Virus record (IMG/VR): IMGVR_UViG_2718217863_000002
DNA: 41,341 bases
Direction: 5' to 3' (one strand)
Origin: a virus
Taxonomy: Duplodnaviria; Heunggongvirae; Uroviricota; Caudoviricetes
The notes beneath the pieces were generated by a model. That model searched no databases. It was not told the DNA's origin and saw only the letters and a program-made list of their open reading frames with translations. The first letter of the stretch is position 1; each line of letters begins with the position of its first letter. The position numbers and the translations under genes are program-made. Shown in pieces: positions 5,580-11,058 of this stretch.

Positions 5580-7739
5580 ATGGCCGAACTTAACCCGCCT
5601 TTGGGAACGACGACGCCTGAAATATTCCTGGATAACGTCAAGCGCGCTGACGAACTGGTGAACGGTCCGGCCGGAACGATTAACGACCGCGCAGGTGAAC
5701 CGCTCGATACCTGGCGCCAGATGATGGCGAAAAACGATGAGGTCAGGCAGAACCTGATCCCACTCAGCAAGCAGTATATGAATGAGGCGGCAGCGCAGGC
5801 AGATATCGCGAATATCCCCGTTGGCTCCACGACCTATGTTCGCAGCCAGGACGTCTGGGCGCTGGCGGACGAGTACATGAATAACGGCGGGACGCTGCAA
5901 CCTACCGGGCGGAAAATGCCATCTCAGGAGCTGGTCAATATCATGACTGATTTGATCAGAGCAACGTTCAGCCAGAATGCGCCAGCGGGTATGTCTCTTG
6001 CCTTTATGGATGAACGAAAAAATTATTCGGTAGGGCTGGATGAGGCGGGCCGGTTGCTTGCCGGGTGGATTAAGGCGAATAAAGCAGAATTAAAAAAGCT
6101 CTCAGCGGATGAATTTATTTCGTCGATCATCTCGTCATCACGTCTGAATATCGGGAATTCTGCTTTATCATTAGTGGCTGACGGTAACGCTGTTTCAGTT
6201 TATGACACCCTTAAACGGCTTTGTTTTGCCATTAATAAAAAAGGGGTACTGAAATCAGGGAAGGCTGAGATCAACAATCTTACGATTGCCAGTATCTTAG
6301 GGTTACCAGCCAACGCCAGCATTTCTACTGCGACATTCCGCGATTTCGTTATGGCGTGGCGTGATACGTTAAATCGTCCGGCTGTGGGTATCAAAAAAAA
6401 CGGGGCATTTGCTGCGGGGAAAATTGAAGCGAATCATGGAGAGGTAAAATCGCTGAAAGCCGAAACTCTGGAAGTTAAAGCGATTATTTCCCCTGAATTT
6501 CTGCGCTATTTTAATCAGTCCATTTACTCACGCCTGCCGGATATTGCCCATAAAATCGGTTACGGACAATCGCTTGCCGCTGGCGTGAATACTCAGGCCC
6601 TGATTACGATAGCCGCGCTGTATACCGCATTGCGTTTTATCGGTGGGGCACGGGCGCAGGATGGCTCCGGCACTTCGGCAGAAAACCATGCTCAGCTGGT
6701 TCCCTACGTCGAGACGTATAAAAACACCGATAACGGCCAGGCATGGGAAACCCCAATGGGGGCCAGCATTCGCGGCTGGTACGAACTGATGATTGCCGAG
6801 AACTATGGCTTTAACCCGGATGATCTGATCATTCTGGGTTCTGTTCCGGCGGAGGGCGGTCAACCCATTGATGTGCTGGCGGCGTATCCCGGAAAGTACA
6901 TTCAGCGAGTTTTCGATGATATCAGTTATGGTTACGCCCGCGCTCAGGAGCTCGGGAAAACCTACCGGCCTGTGGCGATGTACTGGATGCAGGGCGAAGC
7001 AGACCAGACGAAAGGCACCACCAAAGCAGACTATCAGGCTATTTTCGACACCATGCAACAGCGGATCGATGCCCACGCCTCAGCTGTGTGCGGCGAAGAA
7101 GTCCATGTGCCGATTTTTGTTTATCAGTTCAGCAGCTGGATAAACCGGACGCCGAACACAGCCTATCCCACCATTCCGATGGCGCTGCTGGAGCTGGCGC
7201 AGACACGCGAAAATGTCTATCTCACGAACCCGATGTACATTCACGATTACACGGATGGCGCACACCTCACCGCCAGAAGTTCCTATATTCAGGGGCTTTA
7301 TATTTCCGTGATGGAAAAGCGGGCGCTGGTTGACGGCAAAGCGGCAAAACCACTGATGCCAGTTAGTCATCAACGCCAGGGCCGCGCCGCTACGGTGTGG
7401 CTGAATCCGGTGGGTCGGCTGAGCTTTGATACCAGCATTGTTTCTGATCCGGGTAATTATGGTTTCCGGCTACTGCACCCTGACACACGTGCGATTATCC
7501 CGCTGACCAGCCTCAATATCCGTTATGACGCGGTGACTGTCTCAACGGCAGCGGATATCCCTGCCGGGGCCATTCTTCAGTATGCCTTTCACGGCGGCAC
7601 CACCGGCCAGTCACCGGGTCGCCTGACCGGGCCGCGCGGTTGTCTGCGTGACAGCCAGGGCGACATTATCAGTTTTACCCTTAATAGCGAGGTTATCCGT
7701 ATGGATAACTATTGCGTCATGTTTGAAATCACGTTGTGA
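5580..7739 (+). CDS. tail fibre / receptor-binding protein, variant B (currently not behind J)
   Basis: 719 aa; N-terminal ~115 aa homologous to the 8719-11058 protein; C-terminal part contains YWMQGEAD, an esterase-like motif. Confidence 0.7.
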   Translation: MAELNPPLGTTTPEIFLDNVKRADELVNGPAGTINDRAGEPLDTWRQMMAKNDEVRQNLIPLSKQYMNEAAAQADIANIPVGSTTYVRSQDVWALADEYMNNGGTLQPTGRKMPSQELVNIMTDLIRATFSQNAPAGMSLAFMDERKNYSVGLDEAGRLLAGWIKANKAELKKLSADEFISSIISSSRLNIGNSALSLVADGNAVSVYDTLKRLCFAINKKGVLKSGKAEINNLTIASILGLPANASISTATFRDFVMAWRDTLNRPAVGIKKNGAFAAGKIEANHGEVKSLKAETLEVKAIISPEFLRYFNQSIYSRLPDIAHKIGYGQSLAAGVNTQALITIAALYTALRFIGGARAQDGSGTSAENHAQLVPYVETYKNTDNGQAWETPMGASIRGWYELMIAENYGFNPDDLIILGSVPAEGGQPIDVLAAYPGKYIQRVFDDISYGYARAQELGKTYRPVAMYWMQGEADQTKGTTKADYQAIFDTMQQRIDAHASAVCGEEVHVPIFVYQFSSWINRTPNTAYPTIPMALLELAQTRENVYLTNPMYIHDYTDGAHLTARSSYIQGLYISVMEKRALVDGKAAKPLMPVSHQRQGRAATVWLNPVGRLSFDTSIVSDPGNYGFRLLHPDTRAIIPLTSLNIRYDAVTVSTAADIPAGAILQYAFHGGTTGQSPGRLTGPRGCLRDSQGDIISFTLNSEVIRMDNYCVMFEITL

Positions 7740-7746
7740 GGTACTT

Positions 7747-8590: not shown

Positions 8591-8718
8591 AAGCGATGAA
8601 TGACATTATTGCTGTGTGCGTCTTTGCGCGTTGATATACTCCTGGATAATTCAAAACATTTCCAGATATTTCTTATTACAGCATTTTAGAAACACTACTA
8701 CGCGATAAGCACTGTTAA

Positions 8719-11058
8719 CTAGCCCACCAGTTTCTGTAGGGCAGTAAGCCGATCGGTTATCAGTGAGGAAATACGCACAGGCCCCGCGTCCGCATTGAGG
8801 TGGATGCGGGACGGATTTGTATCCCCCTCGGTTAATAAAAAACTAGTGCTATTGAATTTTGTCCAGCCACAGTCAGCGTTAAGGTCTATTAGGGGGAATC
8901 CATATCGCAACGCCACGGCGCGTATGGCCGCTGCATAGTCAGAAACCCGCCCATAGCCATTTGTTTCACCGTCAACCCATGCCGCTGAACGTGGAGAATC
9001 ATAGTCCCCATTGAACGGCGTGGCCCACAGGATAGGTTTTGTTGGGGCCCGCGCCCGCAGTTTCTGAGCGATGATGTTCAGCGCGCCGTAAACGGTTGTA
9101 TTCACTGAGTCGGTGATACTTCCAATCGGAATATTTTGCGCCCAGTCGTTTGTTGCCCACGGACCGCAAATCCACGCCGCCGCCGATGTATCCAGAGCAT
9201 TGATTCGCACATCGTCGCACATGCTGATTTGCGTTGAGGAGCTATCCGGTTTGGCTATTTTCGAACCACCGACCCCGTGATTCAGAAAAGTGCAGCCCAG
9301 TTCTGCCGCGACAAGAGGTTGCCATTTGTTATAAGCAACGTTGCTGTCACCCATCACATCGATGACTTTTCCAGACCACGGACTGACCGTGCTACCACCG
9401 GGAACGACTACATATTTTTTGGCAATAATGGGGACGGCTATACGGGTGGTGATCCCGATTTTGGCGGTGCCGGAAGGAGGTGTTAGCTCGTAATCGGTGT
9501 AGTCCACCGATTCTGTAGTACCGTTCCCTTCGGTGCCGATAACCGTCCCGGCACTGTTCATATACACCGCGAGCGAAACTCCACTGCCGTTAACCCTCGC
9601 TGTGACTTTCCAGCGGTCTCCTGCTGTGTAATTAAAAATTGCACAGTCAAATGCAGCATTTGCCACCACACTGCCATCAGCACGGTTTATATATGCTCCT
9701 GAGGTAATCGTGACGTCGTGTTTAATAAAATCATAAACAAGAGAGTCCTCTATTGTTTGTACCCTGACATCCAGAGAATCGATCGATGCCAGTACTTTGG
9801 CCGTCTCAACGACAGCAAGTTTTTTAACAGCAATTTCCGCAGAATTACGACCCGTTATACCGATCTGTGTTGTCCCGGCAGGAACGTTAAGACGATAATT
9901 AGTATACTGCTGCGGGGTTGCCGTTCCCCGCCCTTCAACACCCAATACCATCCCGGCGCTGTTCATGTACACGGCCAGAGCAGTCGCCGATCCTGTCACA
10001 AGGGCTGTCACCAGCCAGCCATCCCCGTCGGAATGCGGAATGATTGCGCAGTTCAGCGCAGAGTTATCAGTGATGGCCCCTGTAGTTGGGTTGATAAATT
10101 TCCCGACTTGCCAGGCAGCTGCATAAGCATAACCAACAGAGATAGCTCCCTGGAGCGCATCGACGCGTGATGTTAACCCCGAAATACCGGATGATATGAC
10201 GGCTGACAGATAAGTTTTATCCGGCGTGGCGCGAACAAAATCAGGCTGAATAGCCCCCAACGCAGCAGCATAAGCACCGACCTTAAATATCCCTGCCGTA
10301 GTATTTTCAACCCGGATCCTGACGTAGGATGCGCCGGATGGAATGACATCTGTGATAACCGGCGTATTTATACCTGCGGCCAGAGCAAGCTGTGATTTAG
10401 ACGAAATAACAGCGCCAGCGGTGGACATCCAGAAAATATGGAACATAGCACCGGCATCCTGGAACCACGCCAGCACGGAAAAGGTTAACTTATCACCAAC
10501 CCTTACAGGCAGGCGGGCAAGGTCATAATATTTATCTGCAGACCATACGCCGGAATACTGTGCCACTGGAGTCGGTAACGAAATATTGGCATCAGTAGTG
10601 CTGAAGGTGATCACTGCTCCGCGATACCAGTCCCACGCACCGAATTTAGGATCATTTGCTGAATATTCATTCAGAGCATCAAACAGAATGTTCGCCCCGC
10701 GTAGCGAAGAATAAGATGGCATTTTCCGCCCGGTAGGCTGCAGCGTACCGGCGTTATTGATCACTTCTACAGCTAACGCGTTGTCATCCGGGCTACGGTA
10801 ATACGTGGTCGACCCCACCGGAATATTCGCGATATCCGCCTGCGCCGCTGCCAGCGTCTGGTATTGCTTACTGAGCGGGATCAGGTTCTGCCTGACCTCA
10901 TCGTTTTTCGCCATCATCTGGCGCCAGGTATCGAGTGGTTCACCGCCGCGGTCGTCAACCGTTCCGGCCGGACCGTTAACCAGCTCGTCAGCGCGCTTAA
11001 CGTTGTCCATGAATATTTCCGGCGTCGTCGTGCCCAGTGGCGGGTTAAGTTCGGCCAT
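8719..11058 (-). CDS. tail fibre / receptor-binding protein, variant A (in expression position after J)
   Basis: 779 aa; shared N-terminus MAELNPPLGTTTPEIF; C-terminal region with GDSN, GGS and ND motifs suggesting an SGNH-type hydrolase. Confidence 0.75.
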   Translation of the reverse strand: MAELNPPLGTTTPEIFMDNVKRADELVNGPAGTVDDRGGEPLDTWRQMMAKNDEVRQNLIPLSKQYQTLAAAQADIANIPVGSTTYYRSPDDNALAVEVINNAGTLQPTGRKMPSYSSLRGANILFDALNEYSANDPKFGAWDWYRGAVITFSTTDANISLPTPVAQYSGVWSADKYYDLARLPVRVGDKLTFSVLAWFQDAGAMFHIFWMSTAGAVISSKSQLALAAGINTPVITDVIPSGASYVRIRVENTTAGIFKVGAYAAALGAIQPDFVRATPDKTYLSAVISSGISGLTSRVDALQGAISVGYAYAAAWQVGKFINPTTGAITDNSALNCAIIPHSDGDGWLVTALVTGSATALAVYMNSAGMVLGVEGRGTATPQQYTNYRLNVPAGTTQIGITGRNSAEIAVKKLAVVETAKVLASIDSLDVRVQTIEDSLVYDFIKHDVTITSGAYINRADGSVVANAAFDCAIFNYTAGDRWKVTARVNGSGVSLAVYMNSAGTVIGTEGNGTTESVDYTDYELTPPSGTAKIGITTRIAVPIIAKKYVVVPGGSTVSPWSGKVIDVMGDSNVAYNKWQPLVAAELGCTFLNHGVGGSKIAKPDSSSTQISMCDDVRINALDTSAAAWICGPWATNDWAQNIPIGSITDSVNTTVYGALNIIAQKLRARAPTKPILWATPFNGDYDSPRSAAWVDGETNGYGRVSDYAAAIRAVALRYGFPLIDLNADCGWTKFNSTSFLLTEGDTNPSRIHLNADAGPVRISSLITDRLTALQKLVG

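Follow-up and report, generated by a model that had tools for sequence, protein, structure and literature searches.

Organization of the fibre locus

This study concerns an invertible segment in the tail module of a prophage, and the two tail fibre genes within it, carried on a 41,341-nucleotide stretch of DNA (IMG/VR record IMGVR_UViG_2718217863_000002, Caudoviricetes; hereafter the window, by which the whole stretch is meant). An earlier note, made by eye from the sequence, had proposed that the two fibres, designated here fibre A and fibre B, end in distinct esterase-like domains, with SGNH/GDSL hydrolase motifs in fibre A and a sialate O-acetylesterase-like motif in fibre B, and that an inversion switch presenting one or the other would give the phage two host ranges. 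E. coli chromosomes, among them those of strain 5CRE51 and of four MRSN isolates, match the window with 100% identity, and the window contains the whole prophage (about 39 kb), inserted at icd. The prophage encodes an HK97-type head and a lambda-like tail, and its nearest relatives are Klebsiella prophages; the exact fibre A and fibre B proteins are both labelled 'MULTISPECIES Enterobacteriaceae'. An assignment of one fibre to E. coli and of the other to Klebsiella was considered and is not supported, as close variants of both are found in both genera.

The open reading frames (ORFs) of the window place the gene for a serine recombinase on the left, two long convergent fibre genes in the middle and a TipJ/gpJ-like gene on the right. 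The recombinase is a Gin/Hin-type serine DNA invertase (4919-5488, minus strand), encoded outside the invertible segment and adjoining its left crossover site. It matches PF00239 (1.6e-49) and HTH_7 in Pfam and, over residues 1-182, the Mu Gin structures 4m6f (1.3e-71) and 3uj3, at about 1e-71, and it has a YARVS motif with Ser9. Fibre B (5580-7739, plus strand; 719 residues) faces away from the tail operon, in what would be the silent position, and is followed by an accessory gene, ORF238 (7747-8463, plus strand), whose start lies 8 nt past the fibre B stop. Fibre A (8719-11058, minus strand; 779 residues) lies directly behind the gene for the tail tip protein and on the same strand, that is, in the presumed expressed position in the window. 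The TipJ/gpJ-like tail tip gene itself (11135-14203, minus strand; PF24801 and PF13550; 'host specificity factor TipJ family' in RefSeq) closes the constant part of the tail operon.

The fibre genes are bounded by an inverted repeat of 393 nt (I1), the arms of which (5532-5924 and 10714-11106) are 85% complementary. The coding part of each arm specifies the N-terminal anchor domain of a fibre, residues 1-115 (5580-5924, plus strand, in fibre B; 10714-11058, minus strand, in fibre A); these first 115 residues, starting MAELNPPLGTTTPEIF, are near-identical in the two proteins, and the same N-terminus is found, in related loci, joined to a wide variety of fibre C-termini. Each arm has, at its outer end, a 26-bp crossover site, an imperfect palindrome with the structure TTCGCTCAAACC-CT-CGTTTGGGCGAA, or, as one string, TTCGCTCAAACCCTCGTTTGGGCGAA. 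The left site (5532-5557, plus strand) stops 22 nt short of the fibre B ATG, and the right site, of the same sequence (11081-11106, minus strand), is located past the TipJ stop and ahead of the fibre A ATG. The window has these two copies and no other, where none is expected by chance; additional crossover sites, as in a shufflon or in a Min-type multiple inversion system, were looked for in the window and none was found. Each site is followed by 22 nt, including GGAG, and then by the ATG of the fibre gene. Thus, start codon, ribosome-binding site and anchor domain are all, in both cassettes, within the invertible segment, and the crossover falls in the leader. The half-sites resemble the gix/hix pattern TT....AAACC. 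In addition, a -35-like TTGAGC inside the left site and a -10-like TACAAT at 5517-5512 face the invertase gene (5512-5540, minus strand); both are consensus matches. Overlap of the invertase promoter with a crossover site is known for Mu gin, and the arrangement at the left site resembles it.

Both orientations of the segment are found in nature

For a census of isomers, the exact fibre B protein was looked up in public assemblies, which gave 25 contigs. Twenty of these show the order of the window (invertase, fibre B, ORF238, fibre A and TipJ). In the other five the order is flipped: fibre B and, inverting together with it, ORF238 come immediately after TipJ and share its strand, with fibre A facing the invertase. 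In CP035350.1, positions 5532-11106 are inverted relative to the flanks, with 100% identity over 5575 bp by BLAST, and the same inversion was found in CP181607.1, in CATKIQ010000001.1 and in one IMG/VR contig (the set L006, L007, L008 and L011). The flanks of the isomers are otherwise identical, the only mismatches in the flank alignments being those expected from swapped repeat arms, and the breakpoints fall in a stretch of 68 nt that is identical between the arms and runs from the 26-bp site to before codon 7. The natural isomers, the identical sites and the Gin-like invertase bear out the inversion switch that the earlier note had taken as its premise; a two-state switch, with both states found in nature, is demonstrated.

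Copies of the prophage that are identical in other respects carry disruptions at various places, at 5682-7190 in L007, 138-6324 in L008, 4725-7473 in L009 and 38414-39394 in L010. The disruptions comprise a group II intron in TipJ, an IS26/Tn3 insertion (IS, insertion sequence) with an aminoglycoside acetyltransferase gene, also in TipJ, IS elements in the invertase gene and ISKpn26 in the prohead protease gene. These copies represent repeated independent decay, and the switch is locked in some strains.

Fibre A ends in an SGNH/GDSL domain

Fibre A is labelled 'SGNH/GDSL hydrolase family protein' in RefSeq, and the PHROG families that match it are annotated as 'tail fiber protein' or as of unknown function. 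All three motifs that had been noticed by eye are present where they had been placed: VMGDSNV (residues 568-574, nt 9357-9337), which contains block I GDS with Ser572; HGVGGSK (residues 594-600, nt 9279-9259), with block II NHGVGG and Gly598; and WATNDW (residues 634-639, nt 9159-9142), with block III ATND and Asn637. Block V, RIHLN, with His753 (nt 8808-8794), had not been listed. The blocks lie in a domain comprising residues 557-779 (8722-9390, minus strand), and PF13472 matches residues 571-757 with 38.4 bits, above the cut-off of 32.9. In a phmmer search against the sequences of the Protein Data Bank (PDB), the matches were GDSL-like proteins, 7bxd (2e-9), 3dc7 (2e-8) and also 4q7q, and almost all of the 189 homologues from a profile search carry PF13472. 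Residues G570, D571, S572, G595, G598, T636, N637, D638 and H753 are invariant in all 45 aligned homologues; position 635, in block III, is an Ala in fibre A and a Gly in 41 of the 45.

In an AlphaFold2 model of the full-length protein, three units are confidently predicted (residues 308-418, 441-552 and the SGNH domain, 557-779), with a predicted local distance difference test score (pLDDT) of about 90-97. The SGNH domain (pLDDT above 90) was matched by Foldseek, against the PDB, to 7bxd (E-value 1.7e-13; template modelling score normalized to the target, TMt, 0.79) and to 3dc7 (TMt 0.82). The next matches include many carbohydrate acetylesterases, among them enzymes of the CE2 family, which also pair a beta-sandwich with an SGNH domain. 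By its sequence and its predicted structure, then, the C-terminus of fibre A is a true SGNH/GDSL domain, and the reading of the three motifs as blocks I-III is confirmed by the Pfam match, the fold and the invariance of the residues concerned.

The other two units of the model form a tandem of beta-sandwich domains (9403-10137, minus strand; pLDDT about 90-96), of which the first spans residues 308-418 (nt 9805-10137) and the second residues 441-552 (nt 9403-9738). The two copies, of about 110 residues each, are 51% identical (2e-32 by BLASTP of one against the other) and are joined by a helical linker; they represent an internal tandem duplication and possibly serve as carbohydrate-binding modules.

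Fibre B ends in a SASA-type domain and a beta-sandwich

Fibre B is annotated as a 'hypothetical protein' in RefSeq and matches PHROG 4201, 'tail fiber protein', at 2e-114. Scans against NCBIfam gave no match for fibre A or for fibre B. A single-sequence Pfam scan of fibre B returned, besides a match to SASA (PF03629) below threshold (see below), a spurious match to apolipoprotein; likewise, the single-sequence search of the PDB returned only 7qrw, an NHL-repeat protein, a chance match (E-value 0.02) that we discarded. The picture was different for the family. A search with residues 289-719 gave 644 homologues, many of which, at 25-50% identity, carry a precomputed PF03629 assignment. Residues Q330, S331, G335, E390 and H562 are invariant in the 38 aligned homologues, at least 35 of the 38 retain G472, E473 and D475, and position 559 is D or E in 36 of the 38. 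The family profile matched, in the PDB, 9vyh (2e-18), 2apj (4.7e-8) and 1zmb (3.6e-3), and it aligns QGE.D and D..H of fibre B with QGESD and DNLH of 2apj.

The domain so delimited spans about residues 315-590 (6522-7349, plus strand). It contains the motif noticed by eye, YWMQGEAD (residues 468-475), which was found at nt 6981-7004, within the range of about 6975-7005 given for it, and which includes block III, QGEAD. Two further blocks had not been listed: block I, GYGQSLAAG (GQS, with Ser331; nt 6558-6584), and block V, DGAHLT (DGAH, with Asp559 and His562; nt 7254-7271). An alignment-based AlphaFold2 model of the C-terminal segment was obtained with a pLDDT of 91.8 and a predicted template modelling score (pTM) of 0.90. 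Its best match in the PDB, by Foldseek, is the tailspike of the cyanopodophage Pan3 (9vyh; E-value 7.5e-23; score normalized to the query, TMq, 0.75), followed by the carbohydrate acetylesterase XAC1771 (7kmm; 1.6e-14), sialic acid esterases (SIAE) of dog, rabbit and guinea-pig (8f9p at 6e-12, and others), 1zmb (9e-10; TMt 0.66), 2apj (TMt 0.70-0.74) and NanS (3pt5). Among predicted viral structures, the model matches tail proteins of phages ViI and Vi06 (E-values of 1e-8 to 2e-8) and several phage proteins annotated as 'esterase'. A second unit of the model, a beta-sandwich at about residues 593-719 (7356-7736, plus strand; pLDDT above 90), corresponds to the strands at 306-430 of the modelled segment and aligns with the C-terminal part of 9vyh.

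The assignment of the C-terminus of fibre B to a SASA-type (PF03629-like) esterase domain followed by a beta-sandwich is therefore largely supported by homologue profiles and by the structure model, and the earlier suggestion that it is sialate O-acetylesterase-like holds in the sense of family membership. Nothing in the data on fibre B singles out sialic acid as the substrate; members of the PF03629 family also act on xylan, on the Vi antigen and on other glycans. Both C-termini are thus predicted, with pLDDT values above 90, to adopt esterase folds of the SGNH superfamily. They are distinct, as had been proposed, in that they belong to two different families; they are not unrelated, since these are two families of one SGNH fold superfamily.

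ORF238, the accessory gene of the fibre B cassette, is always found after a SASA-type fibre, both in this prophage and in the virulent Klebsiella phage TSK1 (genus Webervirus), in which fibre B and ORF238 have counterparts with 41% and 37% identity; other prophages pair the cassette with different partner fibres. Labelled 'hypothetical protein' in RefSeq, it belongs to a rare family, with only 20 representative clusters among 1.84 billion proteins, and it gave no match in Pfam, PHROG, NCBIfam or the PDB, also when the profile of a nine-member family was used. One member of the family has a weak match to Laminin_G_3 (E-value 0.009), which we do not count as evidence. Conceivably, ORF238 encodes a chaperone for assembly or an additional subunit that binds the receptor.

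Related loci

The sample examined for related arrangements comprised 77 IMG/VR loci with a gene for the same N-terminal anchor. Fibre classes were assigned with hidden Markov models (HMMs) built from our own alignments of fibre A and fibre B, and with Pfam for the larger of the remaining clusters; c1, c2 and so forth are sequence clusters of fibres matched by neither of the two HMMs. Among 101 fibres of at least 500 residues, 23 are of the fibre B type (SASA), 10 of the fibre A type (GDSL), at least 28 are other GDSL fibres and four are beta-helix fibres, and an SGNH-superfamily domain is present in at least 61 of the 101. In 31 of the 77 loci there is a pair of fibre genes in inverted orientation, in most cases with esterase domains and usually with an invertase in range, and in these 31 the 26-bp site, with at most one change, precedes almost every fibre start codon. 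The pairings include GDSL with SASA, SASA with SASA and GDSL with GDSL, and one cassette with a beta-helix fibre; GDSL(c2)/GDSL(c4), c8/c9 and GDSL(c1)/SASA were seen both ways round. Exchange of whole genes at a leader site appears to be common in this lineage of prophages.

The pairs in related prophages include two SASA fibres (L027), a beta-helix fibre with a fibre of 515 residues of unknown type (L051), and two fibres of about 1350 residues each with no recognizable domain (L032/L037). All of these occur under the same switch, and the invertible slot is therefore generic and not bound to esterases. It is conceivable, and we put it forward tentatively and with more doubt than confidence, that inversion of whole receptor-binding protein (RBP) cassettes at leader sites is a lineage-wide plug-in system of HK97-like prophages common to Klebsiella and E. 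coli.

Proposed mechanism and alternatives

We consider it probable that the locus is a two-state switch of the Gin type, in an HK97-like siphoviral prophage at icd, that chooses between two esterase receptor-binding fibres. The invertase would recombine the two identical 26-bp sites, each in the 5' untranslated leader of a fibre gene; because both sites are in the leaders, the 5.6-kb segment would flip with two complete convergent cassettes. The cassette facing TipJ would be transcribed by read-through with the late tail operon, and the cassette facing the invertase would be silent; a consensus scan found no promoter-like match between the crossover site and either fibre ATG. The common anchor of 115 residues presumably attaches either fibre to the tail tip. 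The probable receptor of each fibre is an O-acetylated polysaccharide of the cell surface, either capsule or O-antigen, which the fibre would deacetylate at adsorption, by analogy with G7C gp63.1, with the tailspikes of the Vi phages and with SGNH fibres of Klebsiella prophages (see below). A population of lysogens would then release virions of two receptor specificities, and it is reasonable to infer, as the earlier note did, that the switch yields two host ranges.

Some of our observations argue against this account, or against parts of it, and they are considered here together with the alternatives on which they bear. With regard to expression, the palindromic site followed by CTCTTTTT scores as an intrinsic-terminator-like hairpin, located between the TipJ stop and the fibre ATG; if it is a terminator, the hairpin would restrict the presumed read-through from TipJ into the fibre gene. 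With regard to the two states, all ten complete RefSeq E. coli genomes with this prophage share one orientation, and a junction probe for the state with fibre B on found no identical case among 5,426 complete RefSeq E. coli genomes; the flipped isomers came from a larger assembly collection than this one. With regard to attachment and to trimer formation, residues 1-307 of fibre A are poorly modelled by AlphaFold2.

Other points concern catalysis. Fibre A lacks the Asp expected three residues before His753 (the residue there is Ser750), a position that is unconserved in its subfamily, and would, judging from the sequence, need a Ser-His dyad or another acid. The fibre B sequence scores 16.8 bits against PF03629, below the cut-off of 24.8 and with residues 453-569 alone matched; it is for this reason that its SASA assignment rests on the homologue profiles and on the model. 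Of the two C-termini, then, only that of fibre A is above its Pfam cut-off. Both points would be expected if the SGNH-fold domains had lost catalysis and were lectin-like, serving in binding only, the two fibres differing in their binding target. We regard this as distinctly unlikely, however, as the 45 and 38 diverse homologues all retain the nucleophilic Ser, the oxyanion Gly and Asn and the catalytic His, and as the related SGNH fibres of Klebsiella prophages are active esterases (PMC13123978). Invariance of the Ser, of the oxyanion Gly/Asn and of the His is the pattern expected under selection for catalysis. Neither C-terminus was assigned to a non-enzymatic fold, and the catalytic residues are in place in both, with the exception of the Asp of the DxxH block, which is absent from the fibre A subfamily. 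Active SGNH esterases with Ser-His dyads do occur, for example in the CE2 family.

Granted that the domains are active, it could still be that they act mainly in destroying receptors, freeing virions from debris or decoys or remodelling cells near the lysogen so as to block competing phages, in which case inversion would change the competitor or the decoy and not the host range. Capsule deacetylation has been raised as a possible means of competition between phages, and SGNH RBPs were, in the same study, less specific for capsule type than the beta-helix depolymerases (PMC13123978). Yet both fibres occupy the canonical receptor-binding slot after TipJ, with no further fibre gene visible in the tail module of the window, and deacetylation by gp63.1 is, in the account that PMC13123978 gives citing Prokhorov et al., required for infection by G7C. 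This alternative we find unlikely.

Last, the disrupted relatives described above, with TipJ interrupted by a group II intron or by IS26/Tn3, the invertase gene by IS elements or the prohead protease gene by ISKpn26, imply that in some strains the switch is without consequence for virions. They might also mean that the locus as a whole is the relic of a decaying cryptic prophage, which makes no virions and in which the fibres have no present function, whether inversion is still going on or belongs to the past. That seems very improbable for the prophage in the window: its structural ORFs from terminase to TipJ, both fibre genes and the genes for the invertase, the CI-like repressor and the integrase are all full length, and the ISKpn26 insertion of its relative is absent. 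Moreover, the catalytic residues have been kept in both fibres even though one of them would be silent at any time, and the same architecture is found in 31 of the 77 viral contigs. The switch between two esterase receptor-binding fibres remains, in our view, the account that best fits the locus.

Other features of the prophage

At one end of the prophage is a partial copy of icd (about 1532-1699; coordinates converted from the 5CRE51 annotation), and at the opposite end is the gene for a lambda-type integrase (40199-41341); the CI-like repressor is encoded at 37578-38273. Beside the invertase gene, an operon for an umuC/umuD-like error-prone polymerase (2668-4369, minus strand) forms part of the cargo of the prophage and is kept in the Klebsiella relatives. 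A block of about 120 nt, with a G+C-rich hairpin and CATTATTGCTGTGTGCGTCTTTGCGC, occurs twice, at 4816-4937 (minus strand) and at 8556-8680 (plus strand). The first copy follows the invertase gene and is conserved in many relatives, where it closes the tail module; the second, in the ORF238-fibre A intergenic region of the invertible segment, is found in this phage only, which suggests that the cassette was gained by recombination. A consensus scan also found a terminator-like hairpin of nine pairs, seven of them G-C, followed by T6, downstream of fibre A (8566-8590, minus strand). Between the terminase and lysis regions is an island of low G+C content (27608-29743, minus strand; 0.34-0.37), which encodes a DUF4747 protein and two proteins without known function. 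PADLOC found nothing among the ORFs at 27.6-29.7 kb; the island could represent uncharacterized defence or moron cargo.

Implications

SGNH-esterase fibres of prophages have recently been recognized as a main determinant of capsule specificity in the temperate phages of Klebsiella. If our account is correct, a host range predicted from the genome would depend on an orientation that differs between isolates, and since many prophages would hold a second, silent esterase fibre, both fibres must be counted. To our knowledge, prophage association studies have not counted the silent fibre, and this could explain in part the weak link that they find between SGNH fibres and capsule type. Were the system indeed lineage-wide, the deacetylase specificity of released virions would be phase-variable. 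A switch of this kind could also aid the persistence of one prophage in two genera. In practical terms, the locus offers a natural and simple design for phages of two specificities and a source of paired, predicted glycan deacetylases, and the present RefSeq label of fibre B, 'hypothetical protein', can be replaced by that of a SASA-type esterase tail fibre.

Comparison with known systems

Gin, Cin, Pin and Min are textbook examples of invertases acting on tail fibre genes, and the locus has much in common with the G segment of Mu (Gin), the C segment of P1 (Cin), the P segment of e14 (Pin) and the Min system of p15B: a small serine invertase adjoins the segment, the segment is delimited by two inverted 26-bp imperfect palindromic sites and has two convergent fibre cassettes, and the presumed outcome is a switch in host range. 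As with the S and U genes of Mu, one cassette has a downstream accessory gene, and, like e14, the prophage sits at icd; e14, a defective element with its own Pin invertase, occupies icd in E. coli K-12. In Mu, P1 and e14, however, the crossover is inside the fibre ORF, the constant N-terminal part being outside the segment while the C-terminal parts are swapped, whereas here the sites are in the leader, 22 nt before the ATG, and each cassette has its own start, ribosome-binding site and anchor. The exchanged heads also differ from the fibre tips of Mu and P1 in being esterase-type domains.

As regards these domains, the closest parallels are in Klebsiella. Two SGNH fibres of Klebsiella prophages hydrolyse p-nitrophenyl acetate (PMC13123978, PLoS Biol 2026), and among Klebsiella prophage tail proteins both an 8F9O/7KMM-like and a 3DC7/7BXD-like class have been described (PMC12115436, Viruses 2025), of which fibre B resembles the first and fibre A the second. 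The SGNH RBPs of Klebsiella prophages share with the fibres studied here both the host group and the type of prophage tail module, although the window is from an E. coli chromosome. As in the esterase-type RBPs (gp63.1 of G7C, Tsp2 of Vi01, and 164_08 and 174_38 of Klebsiella prophages), fibres A and B are, as read from the genes, products of the tail module with an N-terminal anchor and a C-terminal SGNH-superfamily domain. Among virulent phages, Tsp2 of Vi01, of the same DUF303/SASA family as fibre B, carries an acetyl esterase aimed at the Vi capsule, as reported in PMC3220722 with reference to Pickard et al. (2010), and gp63.1 of the E. coli phage G7C deacetylates lipopolysaccharide (LPS) according to the summary in PMC13123978. 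At the sequence level, fibre B is just about 17-18% identical to the ViI and Vi06 tail proteins, and the Vi phages and G7C are virulent myo- or podoviruses in which the spikes are constitutive, beside others, with no inversion switch. The Pan3 tailspike (9vyh) aligns with the head of fibre B at GQSL, GE..., D.VH and the C-terminal beta-sandwich, yet with 17% identity and from an unrelated host and virus family; the literature searched gave no paper on its activity.

No paper was found on an invertase that chooses between two esterase fibres; the literature searched gave general remarks on invertases beside fibre hotspots. Wording related to inversion is absent from the full text of PMC13123978 (as is 'recombinase') and from the full text of the 2026 bioRxiv atlas of Klebsiella phage RBPs, and 'invertase' is absent from PMC12115436. 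Thus, while each of the components is of a known kind, what is new here is the combination of esterase fibres with inversion, together with the design in which leader sites allow whole genes to be exchanged.

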